64,000 nucleotides of DNA from Bacteroidales bacterium UBA5235 (GCA_002409145.1 DHUL01000037.1:49325-113324); one strand, 5' to 3'. Counted from the stretch's first letter, positions 3,487-61,645 are shown. Numbers and translations: made by a program. Notes: generated by a model from the sequence alone, not told the origin.

Positions 3487-3549
3487 TATTATGTAAGTGT
3501 TTAATCTTAAGTAGCACAAACTTTCAAGTTTTCCGGAAAATGAAAAGAA

Positions 3550-4672: not shown

Positions 4673-4683
4673 AATTCTTAGTA

Positions 4684-7276: not shown

Positions 7277-7784
7277 ACAAATACTTCATTATTGTTTCCG
7301 GCTTAACCGAGCCTCTGAATATCTTAACAAGCCGAAGACTGTCGTTGTATATAAAATTGGCCGGAATGATATTAGCTCCAAACAATTCACTCAATTTTAA
7401 ATCAGGATCATGTATTATATGTAGATGCGATGTATCTATGATTTTGAAATCCTTAAGAAAAGATCTGATCTCAGATTTTCCAGCGTAACTTACCAGGATG
7501 ATTCTGGAATTGCAGCTTTGGGAGTCATTGGATATAAGAGAGGAAATTTCATACCTGCAATGATCACACTCCGGGTGAAAGAAAGTGATCAGTAAGGGTC
7601 CCGATGTAAGCCAGGAAGTATTGAATTCTTCCCCATTGATATCAGTCAATACTAAATCCGGCAGAATCCTGATCCTTTCCAATGCGCCTTCCACCCGTGA
7701 CTTGCGTGTGAGAATAGCTACAATCAACAATACAATAATGATTATCGGGATCAACAGTAAGAATTTCGCAATTCTCCGTTTCAT
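7263..7784 (-). CDS. membrane-anchored thioredoxin-fold thiol-disulfide oxidoreductase (TlpA/ResA-like)
   Basis: 173 aa. N-terminal anchor FLLLIPIIIIVLLIVAIL. CxxC in FFHPECDHCRYE. Its 3' end overlaps the PCAT start by 14 nt. Confidence 0.75.
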   Translation of the reverse strand: MKRRIAKFLLLIPIIIIVLLIVAILTRKSRVEGALERIRILPDLVLTDINGEEFNTSWLTSGPLLITFFHPECDHCRYEISSLISNDSQSCNSRIILVSYAGKSEIRSFLKDFKIIDTSHLHIIHDPDLKLSELFGANIIPANFIYNDSLRLVKIFRGSVKPETIMKYLYDSD

Positions 7785-8437
7785 GGCATTGCATCAATTG
7801 TTAAAAACATAATAACCGCGATCCATACTGCGACAGCGGGAACATAGGTCGATAAAACAACCTTATCCGCCGCCCCCTTCCTTATTGATCCGATTCTGGA
7901 TAGGCCGAATGCAAGCAGCAATACATAAAGTGCCTGAAAAATGTTAACGCTCTGCAGGGGATAGATCCAATAGGATGCGACTTCTGACCGGCTGAAAAGA
8001 TTAATCAATGACAGCGGATAAAAGAAACTAATATCTTCAAGTGTGTAATTACCAGCAAAAAAAATAAACCATAACAGTTTCATCACCGAAGCCAAAATGA
8101 ACACTATTTCGCACAAGACGACTACTTTAAAGATCTTACCTAGAGTAATCTCCTTGTGCAGATCGCTGAAGAATGCACCTATAAATAAAACCACACTCAA
8201 GGCAGAAAATTTGAGAAGTAGCAATATAGGTGTAATTGCATAGGTCACCCAGGAATATGATTTCATCCTGTAAAAGAGCTCCATCGATCGTTCGTATGTC
8301 AGCTGCTCGCTGTAGGTATTGAAAAAGACGATTTCATCAATCAGAAGTGTTTGAGAAGCGATAAGGAAAAGTATGTCTATCATTACTATCCCGGAAAACA
8401 GCTTCCACCCTCTTAAAGACAAGGCTCTGGCAATCAT
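7781..8437 (-). CDS. polytopic membrane protein of unknown function, coupled to the redoxin gene
   Basis: 218 aa with ATG start and about 5-6 hydrophobic segments. ATGA 4-nt overlap with the downstream redoxin gene. No motif recognised. Confidence 0.6.
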   Translation of the reverse strand: MIARALSLRGWKLFSGIVMIDILFLIASQTLLIDEIVFFNTYSEQLTYERSMELFYRMKSYSWVTYAITPILLLLKFSALSVVLFIGAFFSDLHKEITLGKIFKVVVLCEIVFILASVMKLLWFIFFAGNYTLEDISFFYPLSLINLFSRSEVASYWIYPLQSVNIFQALYVLLLAFGLSRIGSIRKGAADKVVLSTYVPAVAVWIAVIMFLTIDAMP

Positions 8438-8512
8438 ACCTTCATTATTAAGAATCTATCTTCAAACCAAGGATATGCACTTCAGTAATGCGCATTTATA
8501 GTCTTAACTTAA

Positions 8513-8758
8513 TTAATGTCCCTCCATAACCTTCTCTACTTTTATTACTATCCTTCTGGAATCACCATAGTAGTAGGATTCCCGAACATTGGAATACCTG
8601 ATATCAACACCCATCCCTTTCATCTCCTGAAGGGTTTCAAACAGCATTGAACGACTTAGATTCATCTTGTACGCAAACTCCTCTGGCGGACCGGTTGCCT
8701 TCATGGCAATAAGAGAGTCCATCCGTTGCAAACGTGCAATGTATTTTGACAACGACAT
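8513..8758 (-). CDS. small HTH-domain protein (putative locus regulator)
   Basis: Track ORF starts at TTG (8788). The in-frame ATG at 8758 gives 81 aa, MSLSKYIARLQRMDSLIAMKATGPPEEFAYKMNLSRSMLFETLQEMKGMG. This is the wHTH-like pattern of small Bacteroidota HTH proteins found next to peptide clusters. Confidence 0.5.
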   Translation of the reverse strand: MSLSKYIARLQRMDSLIAMKATGPPEEFAYKMNLSRSMLFETLQEMKGMGVDIRYSNVRESYYYGDSRRIVIKVEKVMEGH

Positions 8759-8785
8759 GATTACTATTTTAGAAATGCAGCACTT

Positions 8786-8793
8786 CAAATTTA
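8786..8793 (-). promoter_or_regulatory. candidate Bacteroidota -7 promoter box TAAATTTG
   Basis: The rc of caaattta is an exact match to TAnnTTTG. It ends 28 nt upstream of the HTH ATG at 8758. Confidence 0.3.
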
Positions 8794-8996
8794 AGAAGGG
8801 TTTTTAAGAATGTCAACACTGCTTGCAAAATATTTTGATATATGGTTCTTCGAGATGACTTTTTATAACAATCATGGTTCCTGCCGACTGAGGTCATAAT
8901 CAAGATCCTGACTTGAGAATATCTTAGATTTACTTGACATGAGCAGTCAAATGGCGTAAATTTATATGGCATTACTGGGGAGAAACCTAAAAATCA

Positions 8997-9443
8997 ATGC
9001 CTATGAAAAAGACTGCCGTTCTCTGCTCACTGCTCCTGATTATGCTCGTGGCATGCAAGCAGGAGCCACTAAATCCTGTCATTGGCGCATGGGACCTGTT
9101 CTATGCCAAACAGGTGGTAAATGACTCGGTCGTAGCCATATACCCGGACACCTACCAGGGAAGCCAGGTAAAAATGTGGTGCAATAACTACTGGATGTTC
9201 GTCGGGCAATATAAACAGGATACCATCATATCAGAAAGCTATGGCGGCGGATCCTATACGCTCGAGGGAATCGTCTATAAAGAAACCATCGAGTACCACG
9301 TCACCGGTGATTTCATCGGGAAAACCTTAAGAATGAGAATCGTTGTCGCCAATGATACCCTGATACAGGTGTGGCCGGCCGACGAAACAGGTGAAGTGGA
9401 TAAAAGCAATTACTGGTCCGAAAAATACGTCAGGGTGAAATAG
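8997..9443 (+). CDS. lipoprotein, unknown function
   Basis: 148 aa. Signal peptide plus lipobox LLIMLVAC. The second ATG at 9003 (MKKTAV...) may be the true start. Confidence 0.6.
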   Translation: MPMKKTAVLCSLLLIMLVACKQEPLNPVIGAWDLFYAKQVVNDSVVAIYPDTYQGSQVKMWCNNYWMFVGQYKQDTIISESYGGGSYTLEGIVYKETIEYHVTGDFIGKTLRMRIVVANDTLIQVWPADETGEVDKSNYWSEKYVRVK

Positions 9444-9527
9444 GGGTGTCAGTGACCCGTCAGGCGGGACAATGCTGGACGATCTGTGATCAACGCCGTA
9501 ATTATTGTCACTTGGACTACAATTCTT

Positions 9528-9594
9528 AAAGGCCTGCGGCCTATATACATCTTTTGGCATTCTGTGCTGCAATGCTGAAAGGCCTACGGCCTAT
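9528..9594. repeat. two copies of a 17-nt hairpin motif (aaaggccTGCggcctat / aaaggccTACggcctat) exactly 50 nt apart
   Basis: Copies at 9528-9544 and 9578-9594, 16/17 identical. Each has a 5-7 bp stem (aggcc/ggcct) and a 3-nt loop. They lie between convergent genes, and copy 2 overlaps the stop codon of 9591..10118. Confidence 0.35.
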
Positions 9595-10118
9595 TTGGCC
9601 AGGAGCTTTACCAGCTTTTCATGCAACTGTACTGACCAGGTCTCTATTTCCGAATGACCCCGGTTCTCGGCTTCACGAAGTAACCCAAGCAACAGCCGCA
9701 GTTTGAATTTTGACCGCTCACCGGGCTGCGCTGCCTCCCTGCTGTCAGCCTCACCACTGAAGAATCCTTCACTAACAGTATGAACCATACCCCTTACATG
9801 AGAAGTGTATTGCATGATCACCATTCGCGACTCAGCCCCTCTATCTGTACTGAGCGACGGAATGACAGTAAAAATGGCAAAGGGCTTCTTGCCCAACACC
9901 GACTGGTTCCGCCTGACAAACTCCATCGCCTCCGGAACCCATCCTCCACCCTGCTCCTGGCACCCGGCAATCACAGCCGAAAAAACTTTTACCCCTGACA
10001 CCCCGCTCATAGGCCTGAGCGTCACCTCGGCACCCAGGCCGGTCAACACCCGGGCCACTCGCTCAGCCACACTGGCTGCCAGCCCGGACGTACCTGCATG
10101 AGTTACAAGAATCTTCAT
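9591..10118 (-). CDS. flavodoxin-fold protein (HemG/flavodoxin_5-like)
   Basis: 175 aa. MKILVTHAGTSGLAASVAERVARVL...FSAVIAGC...KPFAIFTV follows the flavodoxin-like beta-alpha pattern. ATG start. Confidence 0.55.
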   Translation of the reverse strand: MKILVTHAGTSGLAASVAERVARVLTGLGAEVTLRPMSGVSGVKVFSAVIAGCQEQGGGWVPEAMEFVRRNQSVLGKKPFAIFTVIPSLSTDRGAESRMVIMQYTSHVRGMVHTVSEGFFSGEADSREAAQPGERSKFKLRLLLGLLREAENRGHSEIETWSVQLHEKLVKLLAK

Positions 10119-18159: not shown

Positions 18160-19119
18160 ATGAAAAAGTCTGTAAAATATCTGCCGCGGGAGAAACAAGA
18201 AGACCTGAAATATATTGTTAGCATGATTCTGGAGAGAATCCCTCGTACTGAAATGATAATACTGTACGGCAGTTACGCCACCGGGAAGTATGTTGAATAC
18301 GACACTCGTGTTGAATTCGGTGTTCGTACCACCTATATGAGTGATTATGATATACTTGTCGTGACGAGTGGTGAAAAGGATAAGGAAGTCGGTCAGAAAC
18401 TTGATAATATCGAAGCTATTTACTATAAAAATCATAGCATTAGCGATATTCTTTACGTAGGTGAAACCGGCAGTATGGAAGTGATATCCGGCAGGTCCTC
18501 AGACAGGCAAACACCGGTACAGTTCATTAATGAAGACATCAGGAAATTGAACAGGGATCTGTCGGATGGCAGGTATTTTTATACCCAGATTAAAGAAGAG
18601 GGTATTCTGTTGTACAACAGTGGTAAACATAAACTCGAAAGACGCCGGAAACTGCGTTTTGATGAGATTGCTAAACAGGCTGCGGAGTATTTTGAAGAGA
18701 AATTCAACAGGGCTTCTGTATTTATAAAACATGCCAGGTATGCATTTAAGGATAAAGACTATGGGATGGCATCTTTTTTTCTCCACCAGACAATTGAAAA
18801 CCTGTTTTACGCCGTGAGGTTGGTTTACACCCTGGAAAACAATAAGATGCATAATCTGATAAAACTGCTGGCATCGGTAAGGAAGTACTCGGGTGAGTTT
18901 GAGAAACTATTCTTCCCGGAAAAAACAGAAGATGAGAAAAGGTTGTTTAACCTTGTAAAGGCTGCATATGTCGAAGCCCGTTATAATCCGGATTTTGTGG
19001 TGACAAAAGCTGATGCAGAGTATCTGATCTCTGTGGCAGAAAGGCTTTTTAAACTTGTTGATGAGCTTTGTCACATAAGGATCAGCGAGTATGAGAAATC
19101 GGCGTCTTCTGCAGCCTGA
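18160..19119 (+). CDS. fused nucleotidyltransferase (MNT-like) and HEPN domain protein
   Basis: 319 aa. NTase motif ILYGSYATGKY...SDYDILVV. C-terminal HEPN-type helices (FFLHQTIENLFYAV, KMHNLIKLL, AYVEARYNPDF). Confidence 0.75.
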   Translation: MKKSVKYLPREKQEDLKYIVSMILERIPRTEMIILYGSYATGKYVEYDTRVEFGVRTTYMSDYDILVVTSGEKDKEVGQKLDNIEAIYYKNHSISDILYVGETGSMEVISGRSSDRQTPVQFINEDIRKLNRDLSDGRYFYTQIKEEGILLYNSGKHKLERRRKLRFDEIAKQAAEYFEEKFNRASVFIKHARYAFKDKDYGMASFFLHQTIENLFYAVRLVYTLENNKMHNLIKLLASVRKYSGEFEKLFFPEKTEDEKRLFNLVKAAYVEARYNPDFVVTKADAEYLISVAERLFKLVDELCHIRISEYEKSASSAA

Positions 19120-32354: not shown

Positions 32355-35300
32355 ATGTCTTTATTTGTTCATTTACACGTACATACACAATATTCCATTC
32401 TTGACGGGGCATCAGCCGTAAAAACTCTGGTCCGAAGGGCGAATGAACTGGGAATGAAAGCTCTTGCCATCACTGACCATGGGAACATGTTCGGCGTAAA
32501 AGAATTCCATGATGCAGCTACTGCTGCATCCATAAAACCCATTATCGGATGCGAAATCTACGTGGCACGGACAAGCCTTGAAGACAAAACATCCGTGGAG
32601 GACCGCTCCGGTGACCATCTTATATTACTGGCAAAAAACAAAACCGGGTACCGGAACCTGATCAAACTGGTTTCAGAAGCATGGATCCGGGGCTTCTATT
32701 ACAAGCCACGCATTGACAAGGAGCTTCTCCGTAAGCATCGTGAGGGACTTATCGCTTCTTCCGCCTGCATTGCCGGAGAGGCGGCGCAGGAAATACTGAC
32801 GGGAAACATACGTGCAGCTGAGGAAGCCATCCTTTCATACAGTGAGATCTTCGGTGACGACTACTACCTTGAGGTGCAACGCCACGAAACAACTGATCCG
32901 ACAGCCGATGTTACCGTCTTCCCCCAGCAGCAACGGGTGATAGCCGCATACCGTGAGCTGGCAGCAAAACACAATATTAAAATAATAGCCTCTAACGACG
33001 TCCACTTCATAATGAAGGATGACGCCGAGGCTCACGATCGTCTTATTTGCCTCAATACGGGCAAGGATATCGATGACCTTAAGAGACTTCGCTATACCAA
33101 ACAGGAGTACCTGAAGAGTGCAGATGAGATGCTGGACATCTTTGCCGATATTCCCGAGGCGGTCAGCAACACTGTGGACCTGGCAGATAAGGTTGAGTAT
33201 TACAAGCTTAACAGCGAGCCCATAATGCCGGAATTCTTGATCCCCGGCGAATTTGCCGACAAGGACGAATACCTCCGGCACCTGACGATGAAAGGAGCAG
33301 CAGAGCGGTGGGAGACTATCACACCTGAAATACAGTCACGCATTGATTTTGAGCTCTCAGTAATCAAAAACATGGGCTTCCCCGGCTACTTCCTGATAGT
33401 GCAGGATTTCCTGAAGGCTGCCCGCGGGATGGGCGTATGGGTCGGTCCGGGCAGGGGATCTGCTGCCGGTAGTGCCGTAGCCTATTCTCTCCGGATCACT
33501 GACATTGATCCCATAAAGTATAATCTCCTCTTCGAAAGATTCCTCAACCCTGACCGCATCTCGATGCCTGACATAGACATTGACTTCGACGAAGACGGCC
33601 GTGAGAAGGTACTCAGGTACGTGGTTGAAAAGTACGGTCATGACCGTGTGGCACATATCATAACCTTCGGCACCATGGCCGCCAAGATGGCTATCAGGGA
33701 TGTTGCCCGCGTACAGAAACTGCCTCTTCCCGAAGCAATAAGGCTGACTAAGCTGGTGCCCGACAGACCCGGCACAACCCTGGCATCAGCTTACGAGGAA
33801 GTGCCTGAGCTGCTGAAGGAGAAGGAGTCAAAGGAACCACTGGTAGCCCAGACACTGAAGTATGCAGAGGTGCTAGAAGGAAGCATCAGGCAGACCGGTG
33901 TCCACGCCTGCGGAATAATTATAGGCAAGGATAACCTGTCAGAACATATACCCATCTGTACTGCGAAGGATACTGACCTCTATGTGACCCAGTACGAAGG
34001 CAACCACGTTGAGTCAGTGGGGCTTCTGAAAATGGACTTTCTTGGTCTGAAAACCCTTTCAATCATGAAGGATGCCGTTGACAATATTAAAAAGTCAAAA
34101 GGCATAACAATTGACCTCCAGACCCTGGAACTCGATGACCGGGTTACATATGAACTCTTCAGCAACGGTGAGACAACAGGCGTATTCCAGTTTGAATCTG
34201 TCGGTATGAAACGGTACCTCCGCGAACTGAAGCCAAACCAGTTCGGTGACCTTATCGCCATGAACGCTCTCTACCGCCCCGGACCGATGGACTATATACC
34301 GCAGTTCATCAGGCGCAAGCACGGGAAGGAAAAGATCTCATACGAGGTGCCGGCCATGGAAAAGTATCTTAAAGAAACATACGGCATCACTGTTTACCAG
34401 GAACAGGTGATGCTTCTCTCACAGGAACTGGGAGGTTTTTCCAAAGGCCAGGCCGACTCGCTGCGCAAGGCGATGGGCAAAAAGAAGCGTGACATCATGG
34501 ACAGGCTCAAGGAGCAGTTCATTGAGGGTTGCCGCAGGAACGAATATGACCAGAACACAATAAACAAGATATGGTCAGACTGGGAATCGTTCGCTCAATA
34601 TGCCTTCAACAAGTCACACTCAACCTGTTATGCGCTGATAGCCTACCAGACGGGATACCTCAAGGCACATTACCCGGCAGAGTTCATGGCGGCAGTACTG
34701 AGCCGCAACATCAGTGATATAAAGAAGATCACCGTCATGATGGAGGAGACCAGGCGAATGGGGATAGAAGTTCTTGGCCCTGACGTAAATGAGAGCCTCC
34801 TGCAGTTCACCGTCAACCGTAACGGCAACATCAGGTTCGGACTGGGCGCCATCAAGGGTGTGGGTGAGAATGCAGTACTCCACCTGATTGAGGAAAGGGA
34901 AAAGAACGGTCCATACAAAGATATTTATGATCTTGCAGAAAGGGTGAACCTGAACACTGTCAACAAAAAAATGCTTGAAGCCCTGGTGGTATCAGGCGCC
35001 CTCGACGGGCTTCAGGGGATGACCAGGGCCCAGTACTTCGCCGCTGACGGCAAGGGCTCCAGCTTCCTCGAAAGCCTTATCCGTTACGGCAACAACGTGA
35101 AGAACATCAGGAACAGCACCCAGCAGTCACTCTTCGGCGACACCGGCGGATTTGACCTGGTACGTCCCGAACCGGCACCATGCCCCGAATGGTCAAAGCT
35201 TGAAAGACTTAACAAGGAAAAGGAGGTTATCGGCATCTACCTCTCATCACACCCTCTTGATGATTTCAAACTTGAGATCAGCACATTCTGCAATGCAAAC

Positions 35301-35840
35301 CTGACCGACCTTCAGAACCTGAGTGAGTTCGCCAACCGTGATGTCTGCGTCGCCGGTATCGTGAGTGACACCCGCAGCGGGGTGACCAGGAACGGCAAAC
35401 CCTTCGGGGGATTCACCCTGCAGGATTATACTGATTCGTTCTCCTTCCTGCTGTTTGACAAGGATTATGTTTCCTTCAGCAACTACTTCAGGAATGACTA
35501 TCAGCTCCTTGTAAGAGGGAGGGTGCAGGGAAGACATTTCAACCCCGAGGAGCTTGAATTCAAGATAAAGGAGATCCACCTCCTGACTGCCGTCAGGGAA
35601 GACCTGATAACATCAATCACCATAAAACTGAAACCGGAACTGGTTAATCCTGAATTCATTAAAAACCTTAAGTCAGTCATATCGGAAAACCCCGGGAACA
35701 AATCTCTGAAATTCCTGTTGATTGACCATGATGAAAGGATTACCATCCCGCTCTTCTCGCGAAGTATAAAGGCAGGTATCACTGATGAGCTTATCGGATG
35801 GCTTGAAGATAATCCGGAACTCGGTTTTAAAGTAAATTAG
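32355..35840 (+). CDS. dnaE: DNA polymerase III alpha subunit
   Basis: 1161 aa. PHP domain HLHVHTQYSILDG, with palm, fingers and OB regions colinear with DnaE. Confidence 0.96.
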   Translation: MSLFVHLHVHTQYSILDGASAVKTLVRRANELGMKALAITDHGNMFGVKEFHDAATAASIKPIIGCEIYVARTSLEDKTSVEDRSGDHLILLAKNKTGYRNLIKLVSEAWIRGFYYKPRIDKELLRKHREGLIASSACIAGEAAQEILTGNIRAAEEAILSYSEIFGDDYYLEVQRHETTDPTADVTVFPQQQRVIAAYRELAAKHNIKIIASNDVHFIMKDDAEAHDRLICLNTGKDIDDLKRLRYTKQEYLKSADEMLDIFADIPEAVSNTVDLADKVEYYKLNSEPIMPEFLIPGEFADKDEYLRHLTMKGAAERWETITPEIQSRIDFELSVIKNMGFPGYFLIVQDFLKAARGMGVWVGPGRGSAAGSAVAYSLRITDIDPIKYNLLFERFLNPDRISMPDIDIDFDEDGREKVLRYVVEKYGHDRVAHIITFGTMAAKMAIRDVARVQKLPLPEAIRLTKLVPDRPGTTLASAYEEVPELLKEKESKEPLVAQTLKYAEVLEGSIRQTGVHACGIIIGKDNLSEHIPICTAKDTDLYVTQYEGNHVESVGLLKMDFLGLKTLSIMKDAVDNIKKSKGITIDLQTLELDDRVTYELFSNGETTGVFQFESVGMKRYLRELKPNQFGDLIAMNALYRPGPMDYIPQFIRRKHGKEKISYEVPAMEKYLKETYGITVYQEQVMLLSQELGGFSKGQADSLRKAMGKKKRDIMDRLKEQFIEGCRRNEYDQNTINKIWSDWESFAQYAFNKSHSTCYALIAYQTGYLKAHYPAEFMAAVLSRNISDIKKITVMMEETRRMGIEVLGPDVNESLLQFTVNRNGNIRFGLGAIKGVGENAVLHLIEEREKNGPYKDIYDLAERVNLNTVNKKMLEALVVSGALDGLQGMTRAQYFAADGKGSSFLESLIRYGNNVKNIRNSTQQSLFGDTGGFDLVRPEPAPCPEWSKLERLNKEKEVIGIYLSSHPLDDFKLEISTFCNANLTDLQNLSEFANRDVCVAGIVSDTRSGVTRNGKPFGGFTLQDYTDSFSFLLFDKDYVSFSNYFRNDYQLLVRGRVQGRHFNPEELEFKIKEIHLLTAVREDLITSITIKLKPELVNPEFIKNLKSVISENPGNKSLKFLLIDHDERITIPLFSRSIKAGITDELIGWLEDNPELGFKVN

Positions 35841-35886
35841 GTATCTTTGAAACGGAAAGAAAGTAATTAAAGAAACATATAACATT

Positions 35887-36204
35887 ATGGCACAACAAGT
35901 TAACGACAGCAATTTTGATGAGGTAGTATTGAAGTCAGACAAACCGGTTATTGTTGATTTCTGGGCTGAATGGTGCGGACCCTGCAGAATGATAGCTCCC
36001 TACATTGAACAGATAGCAGAGGCTTACAAGGAGAAAGCGCTGGTCGTTAAGTGTGACGTTGACAGCTCCCCTGAAGTTGCCCGCCGGTTTATGATAAGAA
36101 ATATCCCGACTGTGCTTTATTTCAAAAACGGTGAGGTGGTTGACAAGCAGGTGGGCGCCGCTGCCCGCTCTGCCTTCGAGGCCAAGCTCACTCCCCTGCT
36201 ATGA
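35887..36204 (+). CDS. trxA: thioredoxin
   Basis: 105 aa with the WAEWCGPCR active site. Confidence 0.93.
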   Translation: MAQQVNDSNFDEVVLKSDKPVIVDFWAEWCGPCRMIAPYIEQIAEAYKEKALVVKCDVDSSPEVARRFMIRNIPTVLYFKNGEVVDKQVGAAARSAFEAKLTPLL

Positions 36205-36211
36205 TAACAGT

Positions 36212-36787
36212 ATGAAGGTATGTGTTTTTGCAGCCTCCAGCAGCCGTATTGACCCTGCTTATATGAAAGCGGCTGAAGAACTGGGCGTGGCATTTGCCAG
36301 GCACAGGGTTCATGCTGTGTTCGGCGGAGGAGGCATAGGACTGATGGGGGTATTCGCCGATTCACTGATGACTCATGGCGGCACCCTGACCGGAGTAATC
36401 CCGGGTTTTATGATAGATGAGGGCTGGGGACACAGCGGGGTGAGTGATATGATTGTCACCCCTGACATGTCAGAGAGGAAGAAAACCATCTTCGCCATGT
36501 CAGATGCTGCAGTAGCTCTTCCCGGCGGCGTGGGGACACTCGAAGAACTAACGGAAGTTATCACCCTTAAGCAACTGGGTCAGTTCAACAAACCTATCGT
36601 AATCATTAATGTCAACGGTTTCTATGACCACCTGATCGAGTTTTTTGACCATATGGTCAGGGGTCACTTCATGAGACTGGAACACAAGGATATATGGCAG
36701 ATAGTTACCACTGCCGATGAGGTTGTGCCGGCCATTATCAATTATACCGGCTGGCATGCCGATCCCAGGGTGATTGCCAGGATATAA
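36212..36787 (+). CDS. LOG family nucleotide 5'-monophosphate nucleosidase (TIGR00730-type)
   Basis: The track ORF starts at 36131, inside trxA. ATG 36212 (MKVCVFAASS) is preferred. Motifs GGGGIGLMG and PGGVGTLEEL. Confidence 0.8.
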   Translation: MKVCVFAASSSRIDPAYMKAAEELGVAFARHRVHAVFGGGGIGLMGVFADSLMTHGGTLTGVIPGFMIDEGWGHSGVSDMIVTPDMSERKKTIFAMSDAAVALPGGVGTLEELTEVITLKQLGQFNKPIVIINVNGFYDHLIEFFDHMVRGHFMRLEHKDIWQIVTTADEVVPAIINYTGWHADPRVIARI

Positions 36788-36825
36788 CCCGACTCATTGA
36801 AAGCGTCTGAAAGGCATGCTGTTAT

Positions 36826-39800
36826 TTAAGGCACCCTGGTCCCGATAAACAGAATATCATCAACCTGGGCCAGGTCACCCATCCATTCCCTGATGGCTTT
36901 TTCGAGACGGAACTTCTGTTCCTCAACAGGAAGCATATGAATTTCGGCCAGCAGTGACCTGATATTTATGGTCTTGAACTTTTTCTCATGTTCTCCGCCG
37001 AACTGGTCGGCAAAGCCGTCGGTGAAGATGTAGAGCATGTCGCCAGGCTTTACCTCCACCCTGTGGTTGGTAAAGCTCTTCCTGGCCTGTCCGTCGATCA
37101 TTCCTATCGGGAAACGGTCACCCCTGTATATGGTTACCTTGCCTTCACGGACATGATAAAGGGGCTGGTATGCCCCGGCATAATCGACTGTATGCTCCAG
37201 GATATCATATGAAATAACCGAGATATCCATTCCGTCCCTGACGGCCTTTTCGCTGCGTTGCAGCAGGGCATGGACAACCTCGATGTTCAGATGGTCAAGG
37301 ATGTCTGACGGTTTTGTTATGCCGCTCTCTCTGACTATCTTATTGAGGGAGTTATGGCCGATGATTGACATAAAGGCTCCTGGAACGCCGTGTCCGGTGC
37401 AGTCGACTGCAGCAATATATTGCTTGAAGCCGCTGTCATGCATCCAGTAGAAGTCACCGCTCACAATATCCCTCGGCATGAACAGCACGAATGTATCATT
37501 GAAGAAATTTTCCGGTGGCAGCATAGCCGCCTGAATCCTCTCTGCATACCTGATGCTGGCGGTGGTATCCCTGTTTTTCTCCTCCAGTTCCAGGCTTTTG
37601 CTGACTACCTCGGCGGTACGTTCCTCAACCTTCTGTTCCAGGTGCTCCTTTTCCCGGCGCAGCGTTCTTTCGCGGAGGCTTATGAAGAGATATATTCCCG
37701 CAACCAGTGAAGTGATGCAGAGTATGATGAACCACGAAGTCATGTATACCGGCCCCCTTATGGAGAATGATAGTTTTGCCGGTACCTCGTTCCAGTAACC
37801 ATAGTTGTTTGAAGCCCTCACCATGAAGGTATACCTGCCCGGACTGAGTGTCGGATATGTGGCACGGTTCTGGTCCGTGGTGATCCACTCCTTGTCTAAT
37901 CCCTCAAGCATGAACTGGTATCTTACCGCTCCGGGATTGACAAGGCAGATGCTGAGGAAGTCAAAGATAATTCTGTTTTGTGTATGCATGAGCCTTATAC
38001 CGTCATGCATCGGGAATACCTCGTAGTTGACAAGCGTTCTCCAGATATGCGTTTCAGGCTCGGTAACCACCGGGGGTATCATGGAGGGAGAGAGTCTCAT
38101 TGCCCCGTTTGATGTTCCGAACCAGAGGTCGCCCATATCATCTGCAAACGAGGCATTGGGCCTGGTCTCAATACCGGTAAAGCCGCTCTTTTCCGTAAAT
38201 GAAGAGATCCTGCCTGTGTTGCTGTCATACCTGTTCAGCCCCAGGTTGGTTCCTATGAACAGGTTACCGGACCTGTCAGGCTGAAGAAGGTTGATTGAAT
38301 TCATCAGCAGGCCTTCAGCCTCCGTGAGTTTCTTTTTCACCGTGTCATTCCTCAGACCATAGAGTCCGTCAATAGTACCCACCCAGATCATTCCGTCAGG
38401 GGTTTCAGTGATGGCTGTCGGATGTACATCAGACCTGAAGGTCACAGGGGTGAATGTATTGCTCCCCGGGGTGAACCTGGTGAGGCCGTTACGCTCCTCG
38501 GTGCCTATCCACAGAGAGCCGCGGCTGTCGCAGAAGAGAGAGGTTATGTTGTTTCCCGTCAGGCCGTTGATCTGCGTATAGGTTGTACTCTGCTTGCGCC
38601 TGGCATCCCACATTATGAGGGCCCTGTCAGTGCCAATCCAGAGGTTATCCCTCAGGTCAGTGGTCATGGCGGCGATCCTCAGAGAGCGGAGGCTGGCGTT
38701 GAGGTCAAGGTCATACCGGAAATTCCTTTCGTCAATATCATAGCGGTACACCTCGTCGCCTGCGGTGGCTATCCATACATTTCCCTCATTGTCAGGACTG
38801 ATAATGCTTATCTGTGTTCCCTCAAGCGATGGGGGGAATCCGCTGAGCTTGATACGGTCCTCCTCTTTAAGGGCGGGGTTGTACAGTGAGAGGCCCCTGC
38901 TGGTGCCGAACCAGTACCTGCCCGTGTGATCCTGGGCCAGGGAGAAAACATCGTTTGAGGGCATGAACTGCGGTGCCATGAACGAGGCAAAGTGGTCACC
39001 CTTATAGATGAAGAGCCCTGCATCACGGTCAGCTATCAGTATATTTTTTTCCTTATCCTCAATCATGCAGAGGATGTGCTGAGCGGGCAGGCCGTTGCTA
39101 CTGTTGTAGACGACTGTCCCCTCCGGGGAAAAGACTGTTATTCCTCCCCTGCTTTCCCAGTCTTCCATTGATGCCACCCAGATATTACCCCGGTAGTCTT
39201 CGAGGATGTAAGAGACAAAATTGCCCCAGAGGCCGCTGCGCGTATCAAAGAAGCCCATCTCTCCCGTCTCGCCATCCTGACGGTAGAGCCCGCCGTTGAA
39301 GGTTCCGAACCACATATTTCCCCGTGAGTCCTCGAAGATGGTTGTAGTCAGGAAGTAGCGTGTCAGCCCTTCCGGATTGAAAGGAACAAACCTGTCACTT
39401 GCATGGTCATACTTCCTGATGCCCATGTCAGTGATGGAGTACAGGTTTTCGCGATGGTCGGCATAAAGTCCGAAGACGTCATTGCTGAGTCCCTGGCGGC
39501 CTGCATATTGCTGGCCGGTCATCAGTGTCACCCCATGTTCCGGCATGTCAAGTCTCAGCGCTCCGCCGAGAGAGGTTGAGACCCAGATGGAGCCGTCGTA
39601 TTCAGTAATGCCTGTAACATCTCCCGTCAGGCTGGTGACGGGTCTCAGTGGGTCACTGATACGGGCAGAATCGACTCCGATGAATATAGATGGGGAAAAA
39701 GATGCTCTTCTGATTATGTTGTCCCCGATAATTGAAACACCCCCGCCGATATGTCCCAGCCATAGTCTTCCGCGGCTGTCCTCGCAGATGCTTTTTACGC

Positions 39801-40071
39801 CACCGGGAGCCAGGCTGTCAGAAGTGGAGAAGTTCTCGAAGCGCAGGCCGTCAAAGCGTGTGACACCGCTGCCGGTGCCAAGCCATATGAATTCGTTTGC
39901 ATCCTGTATGACTGTATAAACCTTCGAGGCGCTCAGCCCTTCCTTTGAGCCGTACTGTTCAAAATAGTAGGTCTGGCTGTTTAACGGCGGAGGAAGTAAA
40001 ATATGAGACAAAAGCAGTAATGCCAGGACAGTTATTGAGTATTTGCCGGAGTTACTGCCTCGCCCTCGCAT
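36826..40071 (-). CDS. sensor protein: periplasmic two-component-regulator propeller repeats, Y_Y_Y domain, one TM helix, and a cytoplasmic PP2C/SpoIIE phosphatase
   Basis: 1081 aa. Repeated ..IWIGT..GL..Y propeller blades. RYQFMLEGLDKEW...GRYTF is the Y_Y_Y domain. TM helix WFIILCITSLVAGIYLFISL, then a coiled coil. Phosphatase motifs SGDFYW, DCTGHGVPGAF and FTDGFADQ. Confidence 0.8.
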   Translation of the reverse strand: MRGRGSNSGKYSITVLALLLLSHILLPPPLNSQTYYFEQYGSKEGLSASKVYTVIQDANEFIWLGTGSGVTRFDGLRFENFSTSDSLAPGGVKSICEDSRGRLWLGHIGGGVSIIGDNIIRRASFSPSIFIGVDSARISDPLRPVTSLTGDVTGITEYDGSIWVSTSLGGALRLDMPEHGVTLMTGQQYAGRQGLSNDVFGLYADHRENLYSITDMGIRKYDHASDRFVPFNPEGLTRYFLTTTIFEDSRGNMWFGTFNGGLYRQDGETGEMGFFDTRSGLWGNFVSYILEDYRGNIWVASMEDWESRGGITVFSPEGTVVYNSSNGLPAQHILCMIEDKEKNILIADRDAGLFIYKGDHFASFMAPQFMPSNDVFSLAQDHTGRYWFGTSRGLSLYNPALKEEDRIKLSGFPPSLEGTQISIISPDNEGNVWIATAGDEVYRYDIDERNFRYDLDLNASLRSLRIAAMTTDLRDNLWIGTDRALIMWDARRKQSTTYTQINGLTGNNITSLFCDSRGSLWIGTEERNGLTRFTPGSNTFTPVTFRSDVHPTAITETPDGMIWVGTIDGLYGLRNDTVKKKLTEAEGLLMNSINLLQPDRSGNLFIGTNLGLNRYDSNTGRISSFTEKSGFTGIETRPNASFADDMGDLWFGTSNGAMRLSPSMIPPVVTEPETHIWRTLVNYEVFPMHDGIRLMHTQNRIIFDFLSICLVNPGAVRYQFMLEGLDKEWITTDQNRATYPTLSPGRYTFMVRASNNYGYWNEVPAKLSFSIRGPVYMTSWFIILCITSLVAGIYLFISLRERTLRREKEHLEQKVEERTAEVVSKSLELEEKNRDTTASIRYAERIQAAMLPPENFFNDTFVLFMPRDIVSGDFYWMHDSGFKQYIAAVDCTGHGVPGAFMSIIGHNSLNKIVRESGITKPSDILDHLNIEVVHALLQRSEKAVRDGMDISVISYDILEHTVDYAGAYQPLYHVREGKVTIYRGDRFPIGMIDGQARKSFTNHRVEVKPGDMLYIFTDGFADQFGGEHEKKFKTINIRSLLAEIHMLPVEEQKFRLEKAIREWMGDLAQVDDILFIGTRVP

Positions 40072-40075
40072 CAGG

Positions 40076-42457
40076 TTATTTCTTTACAAAGAAGAATGTC
40101 CCGTCTTCATCCTTCAGGCCTGTAATCTTGCCGAATCTGGGCTTCTGCTGGTTATTCCCGGTAACGGCTTTGGTAACGTGGAGTACAATCTCGTCTATGG
40201 AGATACATGTTTTCGGATTGCCGCGCAGGGTGCTGGCAAAGGTGCGGGTGAACTGTGAGTCGTCAACCGCAAGCTCATAGCCCGCAGATGAAAAGATCTG
40301 GCTTGACTTGAACTGTGTGGCCCTCCAGTCGGCACAGTTGCGTGGCCTGGGATCTGACCTCATGGCCTGGTAGAAGCTGGGCCCCGACTCACATGCATCA
40401 GTGATCACCAGCACATGCGTCAGATAGTTCATATATGTCTCCATTGACGCCCTCAGAGTATTGAGGCTGAAGTAGGTAAACTCCTCATCGCGGCGGGCGT
40501 CAACGGGGATCCAGTAGCCCACGTCATTGATGAACTTGCCATGACCGGCGAACCAGATGACAAGCGACTTGATCTGTTTTGCCCTGACCTCGTCACGCAG
40601 GTCTATGGAAAAGAATTTTTCCATCTCCTGTTTAGTCTGGTTGCGAATGAGTTTTACGGGCAGCACCTGGTAATCATCCTCGAGCACACCGGTAATGAGA
40701 CTGGCGTCCTTGGGCGGCCCTTGCAGTGCGGCAAAGTTCTGATAATCACTATTTTCTATAAAGACCACCAGGGTGTTTCCCATGGGGTTTGATGCTGAAA
40801 TTGTTGTACCGTTACGGTCAAGCGAATAGTCCATGATGGTACGGTTGCCGTAGACGTCCTCTACAAGTATGGTAACCTTGTCATTGTTCCTGACATCAAT
40901 ACCCTTGGCAATGAATGACGGATTAAGGTTATCCTGCGAGAACTGGGCACTTATGTTTTCGATCTTCACTGACTTAATCAGGTTCTGGTCCTTCACCCTG
41001 CCCTCGATGTCAATTGTCGATGCGATGCTGTCAATCACAAGCACATTTCCTCCAAGGATGTAGGGAGCAAGGATCTGGATCTCAGGAGGATCTACCTCGG
41101 TGCGCCTGATACGGAATGTAAGGACCTTCTCGTTGTCATAGACGTCACGGGCAACGATGCGAAGGGTTTCGTCAGAAGGGATCTCCACCTCCGCGGCAAA
41201 GGGAACTGTTCCCCTGCCCTCATACCTCACTGGGATGTTATTTATTGAGAGCTCGGCAAGGAGGCTTTTGTCAGTCACCTTTCCGGTCACCATTATGCTT
41301 TTCTTGTCAAGTCCTATCTCGATCTCGCTTTTGGAAGTGATAGTCGGGGTCTCGAGCCATATATCCGGGCTGTCGTTTTCACGGTTGATGGCGTAGAGCC
41401 TGTCGTTAGCCTCGGTAAGCATCTTCTTGGCCGAGGAGCTGTTCTCGTTCATCGCCACCACCCTGGTGTAATCGTCAGCAGCCTTTTCAAAGTCATGCAT
41501 CTCCTCGTAGGAACGGGCGCGCATAAGGTAAATCTCCGGGGTGAACTGGTCGATTGTAAGGGCTCTTGTGAAGTCGCTTACGGCAGCCAGATGCTGGTTG
41601 AACTTCTGGTAGCAGGTACCGCGGGTGACATAGTGCTGCTGTGAGGCCGGTTCAAGAAGTATGGCTGTGGAGACGTCATTAATTGCAGATGGATAGTCAA
41701 GCTTTGCCTCATATACCATGGCACGGGTAAGGTATGCCTCCACATTTTTCTGATCCTGCTGAATCACCATGTTACACTGGCCGAGTGCGCTGTTGACATC
41801 TCCCTGGCGGATCAGCACCCTGGCGAGTTCAAGGCGTGCAGCTGCGAATGATTTGTCCCTGGTCACCGCCTTTTCCAGCTGCCGCCTGGCAGTGTTGTCA
41901 TCACCTTTTTTCTGGTAGATGATCCCCTGGTGGTAATAGTTGACCGCATCATCGCGCATCTGGATTGCAGTGTCAGATGCACCCAGGGCCCTGTCCCAGA
42001 GTTCCATTCCAATCAGTGAAACCACCTTTTCGGTATAAAGTTTCCCGTTGCGGAACTCCTTCCTTATGGCCATCTGCAGATAAGAGACAGCATCAGAATA
42101 GCATTTGCTTTTTTCTTCAGGGGTTGCCTTTGCCGACGCGCCCAGCAGGTTGCACATCCGCCCCAGACTGTAGAGTATGCCGGCATCATCCGGGAGGAAG
42201 TTGTTCGCCCTGCGGTAGTCATCGCAGGCAAGCCCGTAACTGCCGGTCATTTCATGAACCCTGGCCCGCCTGACATAACCGTCAGCGGAGGAAGGGTCCT
42301 CATCGATAGCCTTCGAGTATTGCTCAATAGCATCCTCAAGCATGCCATTCCTGGTGAACTCCTCACCGGCCTTTATGTACTTGCGGGCTGTCTGTCCTGC
42401 TAAATTAAGGCAGGTGACAACAAGTAATAATACAAGAACACTGAATCCTCGCTTCAT
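40076..42457 (-). CDS. secreted TPR-repeat protein with Ig-like middle repeats and a C-terminal caspase-like (C14) domain
   Basis: 793 aa with a signal peptide. About 8 TPR-like repeats, two internally similar beta-rich repeats, and the caspase His/Cys dyad contexts VIWFAGHG and VITDACESG. The stop lies 4 nt before the phosphatase ATG. Confidence 0.75.
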   Translation of the reverse strand: MKRGFSVLVLLLVVTCLNLAGQTARKYIKAGEEFTRNGMLEDAIEQYSKAIDEDPSSADGYVRRARVHEMTGSYGLACDDYRRANNFLPDDAGILYSLGRMCNLLGASAKATPEEKSKCYSDAVSYLQMAIRKEFRNGKLYTEKVVSLIGMELWDRALGASDTAIQMRDDAVNYYHQGIIYQKKGDDNTARRQLEKAVTRDKSFAAARLELARVLIRQGDVNSALGQCNMVIQQDQKNVEAYLTRAMVYEAKLDYPSAINDVSTAILLEPASQQHYVTRGTCYQKFNQHLAAVSDFTRALTIDQFTPEIYLMRARSYEEMHDFEKAADDYTRVVAMNENSSSAKKMLTEANDRLYAINRENDSPDIWLETPTITSKSEIEIGLDKKSIMVTGKVTDKSLLAELSINNIPVRYEGRGTVPFAAEVEIPSDETLRIVARDVYDNEKVLTFRIRRTEVDPPEIQILAPYILGGNVLVIDSIASTIDIEGRVKDQNLIKSVKIENISAQFSQDNLNPSFIAKGIDVRNNDKVTILVEDVYGNRTIMDYSLDRNGTTISASNPMGNTLVVFIENSDYQNFAALQGPPKDASLITGVLEDDYQVLPVKLIRNQTKQEMEKFFSIDLRDEVRAKQIKSLVIWFAGHGKFINDVGYWIPVDARRDEEFTYFSLNTLRASMETYMNYLTHVLVITDACESGPSFYQAMRSDPRPRNCADWRATQFKSSQIFSSAGYELAVDDSQFTRTFASTLRGNPKTCISIDEIVLHVTKAVTGNNQQKPRFGKITGLKDEDGTFFFVKK

Positions 42458-42486
42458 GACTTTAGGTCCTTTCCCGGTTGGGGTCT

Positions 42487-42494
42487 CAAAAATA
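42487..42494 (-). promoter_or_regulatory. candidate -7 promoter box TATTTTTG
   Basis: Exact TAnnTTTG match (rc of caaaaata), 30 nt upstream of the TPR-caspase ATG. Confidence 0.3.
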
Positions 42495-42553
42495 CGAATA
42501 ATTATTTACTAACAAGTAAAAGCAGTTATTAACATTAGTTATACGGAATTTGA

Positions 42554-43603
42554 TCAAAAATGATACGCAAATTCCAGAATACTTTTGTCAAAAAATACTG
42601 TTTTATCAGGGGTGAATCCGGGGAACGGATCAGGCACCCCGTCGCCGAAGCTTGTGTTGCCGGTGAAGCGCCGTGCTTCATCCCACTGCCCCGACTCAAG
42701 GAAACTGCCGATGATAAAGGCGCCGCCCTCAACAAAGAGCGACTGAATGCCGGCCTGCCGGAGGCTTGCCAACACCTCGCTGACGAACGGTTCAGCGCCT
42801 GGCAGTATTACGGTTCGTGTGCCGTGGAATTGTGCCTGCCCGTTGCAGGTATAGAGGACGGTTTCTACTGACCCGTCGAAGACCGACGAGGCAGGATCAA
42901 GGTTGCCGCTCCGGCTGACAATAATACGTACCGGGTTTCTGCCGCTCCAATACCTGACGGTGAGCGACGGATTGTCAGCGCGGATGGTTCCTCCGCCGGC
43001 GAGAATAGCGTCTTCACCGGCGCGCCATCGGTGAACGAGAACGCGCTCAGCCATTCCGGTGATCCAGTTTGGCCCGATGGCATCAGAGCTTTTCCTGCGC
43101 AGATCAATGAACCCGTCTGCACTGCGGGCCCACTTGAGAATCACATAAGGTCTCTTTTTCTCATGCCATGTAAAGAAGCGTCTGTTGAGACTGCGGCATT
43201 CCTCCTCCGCCACTCCGGTTATCACCTCCACTCCTGCCTGTCTGAGGCGGGCAATACCCATGCCTGCCACCTGCGGGTTGGTGTCAGGGGTGCCGATGAC
43301 CACCCGGCGAATGCCGCTGCTGATGATCAGGTCAGCGCATGGCGGAGTACGTCCCTGGTGAGAGCATGGCTCAAGGCTGACATATATGGTTGATGTGGGC
43401 AGCAGGCTGCGGTCGCTGACTGCATTGATGGCATGTACCTCGGCATGTGGAGTACCTGCTTTAAGATGATATCCCTCACCAATTATCACACCGTTATGCA
43501 CCACCACCGCTCCCACCAAAGGGTTGGGTGAGGTGCATCCCTCAGCCATTGCTGCGAGCTGCAGAGCACGTCTCATCCATATAAGGTCATCAGGTCGGGT
43601 CAT
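42554..43603 (-). CDS. ribD: bifunctional riboflavin biosynthesis deaminase/reductase RibD
   Basis: 349 aa. Zinc deaminase motifs HAEVHAI and PCSHQGRTPPC, plus a C-terminal reductase domain. Confidence 0.92.
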   Translation of the reverse strand: MTRPDDLIWMRRALQLAAMAEGCTSPNPLVGAVVVHNGVIIGEGYHLKAGTPHAEVHAINAVSDRSLLPTSTIYVSLEPCSHQGRTPPCADLIISSGIRRVVIGTPDTNPQVAGMGIARLRQAGVEVITGVAEEECRSLNRRFFTWHEKKRPYVILKWARSADGFIDLRRKSSDAIGPNWITGMAERVLVHRWRAGEDAILAGGGTIRADNPSLTVRYWSGRNPVRIIVSRSGNLDPASSVFDGSVETVLYTCNGQAQFHGTRTVILPGAEPFVSEVLASLRQAGIQSLFVEGGAFIIGSFLESGQWDEARRFTGNTSFGDGVPDPFPGFTPDKTVFFDKSILEFAYHF

Positions 43604-43628
43604 GAACTCAATTTCCTATCTTTGAATC

Positions 43629-44495
43629 ATGGCCGGAAAGGTACAAACAATAAGCGAGATCCGCCGTTGCTCCCTTGATTTGCTTAAGGAGGGATGGCCT
43701 GCAGAGGAGGCTGCGGCGCTGGCGTCAGCCATCATAAGTGAGTATACCGGGATGGGCAGGGCAGCACAGATGGCTTTCGGGGAGCGTGTTCCCGGGGCTG
43801 ATGCCGCCGCACGAATAGAGAATGCCGTTGCCCGCGCCGTAGCCGGCGAACCGCTGCAGTATATCCTTGGCTATACCGGGTTCTGCGGACACCGGATTGA
43901 GGTGGCGCCGGGTGTTCTGATACCAAGGCCCGAAACCGAGGAGATGACCATCATGATCACCAGTGAAAACAACGGCTTCACCGGAACCGTCACTGACCTG
44001 TGCACAGGATCAGGGTGCATCGCGATTGCCATTGCCCTGGCATTTCCCAGTGCTGCTGTTACAGCAACGGACCTGTCAGGTACGGCACTGGAGATGGCAC
44101 GACGAAACATCTGCATCAACGGTGCGGCCGTGAATCTGATCAGGGCTGATATCCTGAACGATGACCCTTCGCTGGTGCCCCTGAGCAATATCATGGTCAG
44201 CAATCCTCCCTATGTCACCATGCATGAGAAGGAGGCTATGCACGGCAACGTGCTTGATCATGAGCCCCATGAGGCCCTGTTTGTGCCTGATGACAACCCG
44301 TTGCTCTACTACCGGGCCATAGCAGCCGTGGCTGAAACACGCCTCCTGCCCGGAGGCACCCTGTGGCTTGAGGTGAATGAGAACTTTGCAGAAGAGACGG
44401 CTGCCCTGCTATCCCCGGGTAGCTACAGAAAGGTCCGGGTCATAAGGGATATCAGGGGCAAAGAGAGATTTATCAAAGCTGAGAAAAATGGCTGA
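43629..44495 (+). CDS. prmC: peptide chain release factor N5-glutamine methyltransferase
   Basis: 288 aa. SAM motif DLCTGSGCIAI and the catalytic VSNPPYV. Confidence 0.85.
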   Translation: MAGKVQTISEIRRCSLDLLKEGWPAEEAAALASAIISEYTGMGRAAQMAFGERVPGADAAARIENAVARAVAGEPLQYILGYTGFCGHRIEVAPGVLIPRPETEEMTIMITSENNGFTGTVTDLCTGSGCIAIAIALAFPSAAVTATDLSGTALEMARRNICINGAAVNLIRADILNDDPSLVPLSNIMVSNPPYVTMHEKEAMHGNVLDHEPHEALFVPDDNPLLYYRAIAAVAETRLLPGGTLWLEVNENFAEETAALLSPGSYRKVRVIRDIRGKERFIKAEKNG

Positions 44496-44961
44496 AAAGA
44501 AACAGAGGGAGGAACTGCTGCAGAGGGCAATGAGAGCCTGCTCGGAAAGGGAGTACTGCATCAGTGACATCTCGGCGCTGCTTGACCGCTGGGGTGCGGA
44601 TGGATCTGAGACGCGAACCTGGATAATCGACAGGCTGATAAAGGAAAAGTTCATTGACGAATACCGTTACAGCAGGGCATTTGTGCTTGACCATTTCAGG
44701 CACAGCCAGTGGGGGCGGGTAAAGATCAGCATGGCACTGAAACAGAAGAAGGTCGAACCGGAAGCCATAGCATCAGGTATGGAAGCCATCGGTGAAGATG
44801 AATACCTGGAACTGCTGCAAAAGATCCTGGGCGACCAGCGGAGGAAAATAAAGGCAAAGAACAGGCTTGACCTCAGGGGAAAGCTTCTCAGGCATGCACT
44901 GGGAAAGGGATTTGAGAGCCATCTTGTATATGACGCCATCAACTCGCTGCTGACTGACTGA
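44488..44961 (+). CDS. recX: RecX family regulatory protein
   Basis: 157 aa. Repeated three-helix pattern (REYCISDISALL, IIDRLIKEKFIDEYRYSRAFV, GRVKISMALKQKKV). Overlaps prmC by 8 nt. Confidence 0.75.
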   Translation: MAEKKQREELLQRAMRACSEREYCISDISALLDRWGADGSETRTWIIDRLIKEKFIDEYRYSRAFVLDHFRHSQWGRVKISMALKQKKVEPEAIASGMEAIGEDEYLELLQKILGDQRRKIKAKNRLDLRGKLLRHALGKGFESHLVYDAINSLLTD

Positions 44962-61178: not shown

Positions 61179-61240
61179 CAGGTGACAGTTATTTTTGACT
61201 TTTATAAAAAAAGTGCAATTTTTGTAAAAAAAGGGGAGAG

Positions 61241-61645
61241 ATGAAAAGTTTCATACACAAAGCCACAGAGCTGACACCGGAAATTATCCTCGCTCCGGCT
61301 GAAAACAGGTTCACCATTTCCGGGAAGTCGGCGCCGGAAGATGTAAGAGGCCTTTATTATCCGGTTATTGAATGGATGGAAGAGTTCGTAACGGAAATAA
61401 AAAGGGGGCACAATTACACTGACAGTAATCCTCTCCTCCTGAAGCTTGACCTTGAGTATTTCAATTCGTCCTCTGCAAAGTTCCTCTTTGACATCTTCGG
61501 CCAGCTGAAGGAAATGAGCAACGAAGGTATTCCCGTGGATATCGAATGGCATTATGACGAGGAAGATACCGATCTTCGCGAGGCTGGCGAGGACCTGGCG
61601 TTGCTTGCAGAACTTCAGTTCAGGTATTGCCCGGAGACCAGATGA
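61241..61645 (+). CDS. DUF1987 / SiaC-like regulatory protein
   Basis: 134 aa. TPEIILAPAENRFTISGKSAPEDV..YYPVIEWMEEF...LKLDLEYFNSSSAKFLFDIF is the characteristic DUF1987 pattern. Confidence 0.6.
   Translation: MKSFIHKATELTPEIILAPAENRFTISGKSAPEDVRGLYYPVIEWMEEFVTEIKRGHNYTDSNPLLLKLDLEYFNSSSAKFLFDIFGQLKEMSNEGIPVDIEWHYDEEDTDLREAGEDLALLAELQFRYCPETR

Follow-up and report, generated by a model that had tools for sequence, protein, structure and literature searches.

The window analysed here is a 64,000-nt stretch of DNA from Bacteroidales bacterium UBA5235 (GCA_002409145.1 DHUL01000037.1:49325-113324). Two long open reading frames lie head to tail on its minus strand: gene A (40076-42457; 793 aa plus stop), encoding a secreted TPR-Ig-Ig-caspase-like protein, and gene B (36826-40071; 1081 aa plus stop), encoding a transmembrane propeller/Y_Y_Y sensor with a PP2C phosphatase. 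Functional coupling of A and B is well supported by comparison of related loci. On balance, we think that the two genes probably form a functional envelope-signalling cassette in which A acts at the sensor domain of B. Within a cassette of this kind, proteolysis of the sensor or of its ligand would be the trigger with about even chances. An earlier reading made from the nucleotide sequence alone (hereafter the sequence-only reading) had suggested such proteolysis-gated signalling.

Relatives of A were collected by scanning one genome per GTDB species, which gave at least 585 genomes, and 80 loci were fetched. A second set of 80 loci came from a metagenome scan that took a divergent member as its centre. 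The A family is large: 274 sequence clusters at 50% identity matched at E 1e-30 or better. With at least 585 species-level genomes, the cassette is thus not a curiosity of one metagenome-assembled genome (MAG). Adjacency was counted in the 142 loci with at least 1 kb of sequence downstream of A. A B ortholog followed directly on the same strand in 135 of them; the gap had a median of 5 nt and did not exceed 10 nt in 93 of the 135. Co-occurrence no higher than chance would have spoken against the sequence-only reading, and the loci compared here, with the remote homologs described below, give no such refutation. Retention of the A-B junction (134/141) exceeded that of both flanking junctions (ribD-A, 111/131; B-LOG/trx, 88/103), and in 7 loci the pair was intact with both flanks changed. 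Two loci, L074 and L077, carried the pair in other genomic contexts, with an extra secreted caspase paralog just upstream. This stand-alone protein (L074 7897-8697, L077 7151-7927; 258-266 aa) matched Pfam C14 with E 1e-12 to 4e-14 and was 56% identical to the caspase domain of A, which indicates a lineage-specific duplication of the protease module. Further caspase-sensor pairs were not found within the fetched loci.

Remote homologs of A were sought in 1.84 billion representative proteins and with a profile from which the TPR region had been trimmed. A profile built on full-length remote homologs was given up: unrelated TPR proteins dominated its results, and P0196 and P0272 were all that it yielded; the latter was set aside because of its different architecture and CHAT/conflict-like context. 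Genomic contexts were sampled for six remote relatives, a small sample. Two of these, P0196 and P0393, have the TPR-Ig-caspase architecture of A at 27-30% identity and keep the catalytic His-Cys dyad. P0196 (locus L166) is followed after 26 nt by a gene with Reg_prop (3e-39), Y_Y_Y and His_kinase (PF06580; LytS-type) domains and then by a REC-LytTR regulator. P0393 (locus L171) is followed after 23 nt by a gene with Reg_prop (2e-42), Y_Y_Y, HisKA, HATPase_c and REC domains and then by a REC-adenylate/guanylate cyclase. Aligned over the whole length of the periplasmic part of B, the two remote sensors gave 32% over 874 aa (E 1e-134) and 28% over 827 aa (E 3e-79). P0393 was sister to the PP2C-linked clade in a rough neighbour-joining tree, and P0196 fell in a distant branch. 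The recurrence of caspase genes beside Reg_prop/Y_Y_Y sensors with other outputs points to an interaction in the periplasm: the caspase-like protein travels with the sensor module on the periplasmic side rather than with the phosphatase or any other particular output. At L166 (1-7687), the caspase/LytS-type sensor/LytTR cassette lies directly downstream of genes for an alpha-2-macroglobulin-like protein and a PBP1C-type transglycosylase/transpeptidase, a periplasmic protease-trap pair; this adjacency may or may not be meaningful.

The C-terminal part of A (aa 556-793; 40079-40792, minus strand) was assigned as a caspase-fold domain (clan CD, C14-like) on the basis of Foldseek searches and conservation. 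An AlphaFold2 model of residues 355-793 (mean predicted local distance difference test score, pLDDT, 76.7) contains two beta-sandwiches and an alpha/beta domain. Searched against the PDB with Foldseek, the alpha/beta domain matched MALT1 best (3V4O, E 6e-8), followed by procaspase-1, caspase-3, caspase-9 and a SAVED-CHAT protease; model and search both give the caspase fold of peptidase family C14. The His-then-Cys order of that family is also present: His639 (FAGHG; codon at 40541-40543, minus strand) follows strand 629-637, and Cys689 (DACESG; codon at 40391-40393, minus strand) follows strand 681-686, with Asp687 two residues before Cys. Both residues were invariant in all 101 A orthologs of under 72% identity, and the intact catalytic contexts described in the sequence-only reading occupy canonical positions of the fold. 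The family profile, iwyaGHGkf..ywiPVDA, aligns with the catalytic-His segment of MALT1. Mean conservation within A was highest in the caspase domain (0.65); the TPR region reached 0.35 and the Ig domains 0.31-0.37. The active site is under selection, as is that of the phosphatase of B. Pfam PF00656 was matched by 7 of 11 A orthologs (best E 6.7e-18), by P0196 (3e-12) and by P0393 (2e-16). NCBIfam caspase_w_EACC1 (NF047832) gave a weak match to A itself (35 bits, E 1e-8; cutoff 140), and several homologs are named 'caspase family protein' at NCBI. The C-terminal 239 aa alone had no Pfam match and retrieved nothing useful from PDB sequences with phmmer. Given the fold search, the C14 matches of the orthologs and the NCBIfam match, the caspase assignment of A is judged sound at the level of sequence and model. 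An Asp two residues before the Cys is a metacaspase-like feature and would go with a basic P1 residue. Judged from this Asp and the MALT1-like His context, the probable cleavage site of A is after Arg or Lys, as in metacaspases and the paracaspase.

B is a type-I membrane protein, and its parts agree with those listed in the sequence-only reading (propeller repeats, Y_Y_Y, a transmembrane segment and SpoIIE/PP2C). A signal peptide (aa 1-32) precedes Gln33, which is invariant among orthologs. The predicted periplasmic sensor (aa 33-779; 37735-39975, minus strand) consists of a double propeller of Reg_prop repeats (Pfam E 1e-47) and Y_Y_Y (E 2e-18). Against the PDB, this region matched 4A2L, a BT4663-type sensor, with E 6e-50, and also 3V9F and 3VA6. 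The single transmembrane helix WFIILCITSLVAGIYLFISL (aa 780-799; 37675-37734, minus strand) is followed by RERTLRREKE, in agreement with the positive-inside rule. Next comes a juxtamembrane signalling helix (aa 800-870; 37462-37674, minus strand), assigned by conservation, which is the most conserved segment of B (mean 0.69, compared with 0.42-0.45 for the propellers). The C-terminal PP2C domain (PPM/SpoIIE-type, SiaA-like; aa 871-1081; 36829-37461, minus strand) was assigned from Pfam, NCBIfam and PDB matches. It matched Pfam SpoIIE (PF07228) with 67.9 bits (cutoff 25; E 1.5e-18), and its metal-binding residues D873, D890, D946/D949, D1018, D1022 and D1071/D1072, as expected of the PPM/PP2C family, were invariant in 81 orthologs. 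The motifs SGDFYW, DCTGHG and FTDGFADQ of B were present as previously reported, as were FAGHG and DACESG of A. Among solved structures, the PP2C domain of SiaA (6K4E, E 1e-32) was far closer than SpoIIE (7e-4). NCBIfam SiaA (NF038263) scored 190 bits over the PP2C part only, far short of its equivalog cutoff of 700.

Two known kinds of protein resemble the two halves of B. The Bacteroides hybrid two-component system (HTCS) sensors (BT4663, 4A2L/4A2M; 3V9F, 3VA6) likewise have Reg_prop propellers and Y_Y_Y followed by one transmembrane helix. Their output is HisKA-HATPase-REC-AraC, whereas B has only PP2C after the transmembrane helix; the B gene lies outside a polysaccharide utilisation locus and follows a secreted caspase-like gene. 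To our knowledge no caspase partner has been described for HTCSs, and a literature search found no paper reporting one. By analogy, the phosphatase of B would work like SiaA or RsbU. A c-di-GMP output is generally absent from Bacteroidota. The best solved relative of the B phosphatase, SiaA of the Pseudomonas aeruginosa SiaABCD system (6K4E; PMC7647112), is, like B, a membrane-anchored PP2C with a preceding helix, but it has no propeller sensor. Genes for siaB, siaC or siaD do not adjoin B, and siaB and siaD were not found in the window, which sets the pair apart from a SiaABCD operon.

A gene for a SiaC-family (DUF1987) regulatory phosphoprotein of 134 aa is located at 61241-61645 on the plus strand, 21 kb from the A-B pair in the same window (PF09345, 103.6 bits, E 7e-30; NCBIfam SiaC, 70 bits). 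It stands between RNase H and YbaK-like genes and has its own TATTTTTG box at 61190-61197. Its segment LEYFNSSSAK corresponds to LLYLNT68SSIK of P. aeruginosa SiaC (FNSSS versus LNTSS), with Ser at the position of the phospho-Thr68. In P. aeruginosa, SiaB phosphorylates Thr68 of SiaC and SiaA removes the phosphate (PMC7647112). Since the phosphatase of B is SiaA-like, this protein may be put forward, weakly, as the best candidate substrate in view. As a linked partner the SiaC-like gene was rejected, from its position in related loci (see below). The window annotations contained no STAS or HATPase_c_2 protein, as would belong to an RsbU/RsbV/RsbW-type partner switch. The earlier statement that no STAS/anti-sigma partner or kinase is encoded nearby thus stands for the operon and the syntenic block, but it passed over the SiaC-family gene. 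The output, formerly given as unknown, is narrowed by the SiaA-like phosphatase together with this gene, which is unlinked elsewhere.

Several observations weigh against a cassette as proposed above. The families listed for a profile check in the sequence-only reading were recovered in the case of TPR, Reg_prop, Y_Y_Y and SpoIIE, but Peptidase_C14 (PF00656) had no match on A of the window, even with the isolated domain at E = 10. The loops around the catalytic residues of A are of low confidence in the models. A SiaC-like gene was located within 10 kb of the pair in only 1 of 163 related loci, and neither the annotated parts of the window nor the direct neighbours of the SiaC-family gene showed a SiaB-like kinase. 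In 7 of 142 loci A had no B beside it and stood amid unrelated metabolic genes; these include two (L103 and L112) in which ribD-A was kept and B was missing from a syntenic slot that was otherwise intact, LOG-trx-dnaE coming straight after A in L103. No sensor gene adjoined four of the six remote relatives, namely P0391, P0392 and P0394, all with the dyad kept, and P0390; the association of caspase and sensor is recurrent, not universal. Finally, the gene order recX-prmC-ribD-A-B-LOG-trx-dnaE (32355-44961 in the window) was syntenic in the majority of the 163 loci and persisted to protein identities of about 45%, and much of the A-B adjacency was therefore inherited and does not represent independent events. 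This order is shared by many Bacteroidales/Bacteroidia MAGs; synteny of such depth is unusual where a signalling pair lies among housekeeping genes.

An old and stable block of this kind could also hold inherited neighbours with separate jobs. A, a TPR-plus-protease like BepA or NlpI-Prc, would then serve processing or quality control in the periplasm at large, and B would be an independent glycan or envelope sensor. The syntenic block, the loci with A alone and the four remote branches without a sensor all fit such an arrangement. The A-B junction, however, is kept above both flanking junctions and moves as a unit into new contexts, and the gap is very short in most loci. Moreover, two deep branches independently show a Reg_prop/Y_Y_Y sensor directly downstream, with different outputs. 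Such sensors make up less than about 1% of the genes of a Bacteroidota genome by our own estimate, so that both adjacencies are very unlikely to have arisen by chance. The loci lacking B nest within the B-linked clade of the neighbour-joining tree and look like secondary losses. Separate jobs were considered unlikely on these grounds, and a working association of A with the B sensor is preferred.

The N-terminal part of A is consistent with export and with binding of a partner. Its signal peptide (aa 1-21; 42395-42457, minus strand) has a predicted cleavage site before Gln22, and signal-peptidase-I cleavage before Gln is the 'Q-rule' of Bacteroidetes. Across orthologs, G-Q-[ST]..RK is kept in this region and the Cys is not conserved, so that A would be a substrate of signal peptidase I and not a lipoprotein. 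The lipoprotein alternative, based on VVTC in the signal peptide, was rejected for the same reason. No Pfam match to a type IX secretion system C-terminal domain was obtained in A, and a soluble periplasmic protein is most likely. The TPR solenoid (aa 22-358; 41384-42394, minus strand) was recognised by Pfam TPR families and modelled with pLDDT above 90. Of the roughly eight TPRs formerly counted, the repeat type was confirmed by Pfam, but the full-length AlphaFold2 model shows about nine TPR-like helix pairs and a capping helix. This model had a pLDDT of 82 and a predicted template modelling (pTM) score of 0.46, from which the packing of the domains is uncertain. Two tandem Ig-like beta-sandwich domains follow (aa 363-548; 40814-41371, minus strand), assigned from the models and from their mutual similarity. 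They correspond to the two internally similar beta-rich repeats of the sequence-only reading, whose likeness proved significant (local score 92, compared with 27 +/- 4.9 for shuffles; z about 13). Pfam matches to Glucodextran_B and Big were obtained in the Ig region of A orthologs, and the isolated Ig region of A from the window gave no useful Pfam match.

Large TPR and Ig modules would equally suit a non-proteolytic co-receptor, with A binding the sensor or presenting a ligand to it through these modules, comparable to ExoR with ExoS and to the periplasmic binding proteins of LuxQ and TorS. In that case the caspase domain would be a binding module or a transpeptidase instead of the signalling switch; transpeptidase activity is shown by other clan CD enzymes (PorU, GPI8). 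A paralogous clade (P0390, P0220, P0192, P0212, P0213 and P0221) with signal peptide, TPR, Ig and caspase-like parts has lost both His and Cys, and the scaffold can thus function without catalysis. On the other hand, the dyad is strictly kept in the sensor-linked lineages (101/101 orthologs as well as P0196 and P0393), no other part of A is as well conserved as the caspase domain, and the only pseudo-caspase locus examined (L169, with P0390) has no adjoining sensor gene. A co-receptor role was accordingly rated as distinctly improbable, below that of separate jobs.

The NCBIfam match of A to a caspase of the EACC1-associated type also raised the question whether the pair belongs with the caspase-TPR modules of NTP-dependent conflict systems, with a role in conflict, defence or programmed death. 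Such systems commonly include caspase-TPR and CHAT proteins (PMC7159879), and locus L167 has a context of this kind. For the A-B pair, however, the NCBIfam score misses the cutoff by a wide margin, A and B both have export signals, and the genes are embedded among housekeeping genes and inherited vertically. There was no PADLOC match, and NTPase, effector or mobile-element neighbours were absent. A defence system was rejected in view of the NCBIfam score and the PADLOC result, and its probability is regarded as minimal.

The arrangement of the two genes is that of an operon. They are separated by the 4-nt spacer cctg (40072-40075, minus strand), the junction reading TAA-cctg-ATG, and both this gap and the length of B agree with the sequence-only reading. 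The Bacteroidetes-type -7 promoter box TATTTTTG was located at 42487-42494 on the minus strand, with 29 nt between box and ATG of A (30 nt in the earlier description), inside the 96-nt gap after ribD (42554-43603, minus strand). It is the sole minus-strand TAnnTTTG between 37970 and 46588, so that no separate canonical promoter for B lies within A. TAnnTTTG occurred at chance level across the whole window (31 observed, 30.4 expected). Upstream of A it was present at 10-80 nt in 116 of 143 orthologous loci, compared with 3% of random 78-nt windows. Scans of the region for sigma-70-type promoters and terminators performed no better than on shuffled sequences, and repeat and Rfam scans of the operon returned nothing relevant. 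Upstream of A lie ribD, prmC and recX; downstream of B lie a convergent LOG-family gene, a thioredoxin gene and dnaE.

From these data the following course of events is proposed for the cassette. A single promoter upstream of A would give a bicistronic A-B message, on which ribosomes probably re-initiate across the 4-nt spacer to translate B. The two proteins would be exported via Sec and processed by signal peptidase I. In A, the TPR solenoid would bind a partner or peptide, the two Ig-like domains would act as spacers, and the caspase-family cysteine protease would be active. Through its TPRs, A would engage the propeller/Y_Y_Y ectodomain of B or something bound there, and would either cleave the sensor module (or a bound inhibitor or ligand precursor) or dock on the module. 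The signal would pass along the conserved juxtamembrane helix and set the activity of the cytoplasmic SiaA-like PP2C domain. This domain would remove phosphate from a partner-switch protein phosphorylated on Ser/Thr; the strongest candidate in view is the SiaC-family protein (61241-61645). The pairing across loci, the retention of the junction and the remote homologs lend good support to the earlier suggestion of an extracytoplasmic caspase working with the sensing domain of a phosphatase. Tentatively, and as a possibility rather than an expectation, the cassette may be a Bacteroidota counterpart of protease-activated receptors. In such a system a dedicated, TPR-targeted periplasmic caspase would cleave or unmask the propeller/Y_Y_Y ectodomain of its cognate sensor, and caspase and sensor together would form a portable input for at least three outputs (PP2C partner switch, LytS/LytTR, and hybrid kinase with REC-cyclase).

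Parts of such a scheme are known from other proteins. Prokaryotic C14 peptidases (orthocaspases and metacaspases) and MALT1, the best structural match, share with A the caspase fold, the His-Cys dyad, AGHG and D-x-C. Most orthocaspases described so far are proteins of the cytoplasm; A differs from other C14 members in being exported with a signal peptide, in its fusion to TPR and Ig domains and in a family-specific insert, GYWIPVDA.RDDEFTYF, after the His. BepA (TPR and M48) and NlpI-Prc are TPR-guided envelope proteases in which the TPR module leads a periplasmic protease to its targets, as proposed for A, but they belong to another protease class and a different phylum and have no dedicated signalling partner gene. 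In ExoR-ExoS/ChvI (PMC10659215) and CpxP/DegP-CpxA, a periplasmic repeat protein and periplasmic proteolysis set the state of a transmembrane sensor, as would be the case for A and B. The A-B pair differs from ExoR-ExoS/ChvI in that repeat domain and protease are one polypeptide, the protease is of the caspase family, the partner is a propeller sensor, and the pair is known from sequence alone. Literature searches for the pair, or for its domain combination, returned no published description. The related caspase genes beside sensors with other outputs point to a protease-plus-sensor cassette that is undescribed so far, of a general kind that is known, namely transmembrane sensing modulated by accessory proteins or proteases.

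The interest of the cassette lies in its being widespread, vertically conserved and modular. Discussion of caspase-family proteases in bacteria has mostly treated them as effectors of death or defence in the cytoplasm, and an exported, vertically inherited and receptor-wired caspase would, if true, mean a regulatory role in the envelope. It would also supply a partner and a testable input mechanism for the propeller/Y_Y_Y sensors outside polysaccharide utilisation loci, which are very common and poorly understood, and would connect such sensors to Ser/Thr partner-switch signalling of the SiaA/SiaC-like type, which is almost unstudied in Bacteroidota.

The window matches metagenome contigs from fermenter and digester samples, and the nearest genomes are uncultured Bacteroidales MAGs. 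Its sole Rfam match was a DUF805b cis-regulatory RNA motif at 4911-4946 on the minus strand (40.4 bits, above the gathering score). A stretch of low GC content at about 2000-10000 (0.38-0.44, compared with about 0.5 elsewhere) contains a Peptidase_C39-ABC exporter gene (5081-7276), an AhpC-TSA-like gene and small unannotated open reading frames, and resembles a bacteriocin or peptide export island. A HEPN-domain gene was located at 18160-19119.

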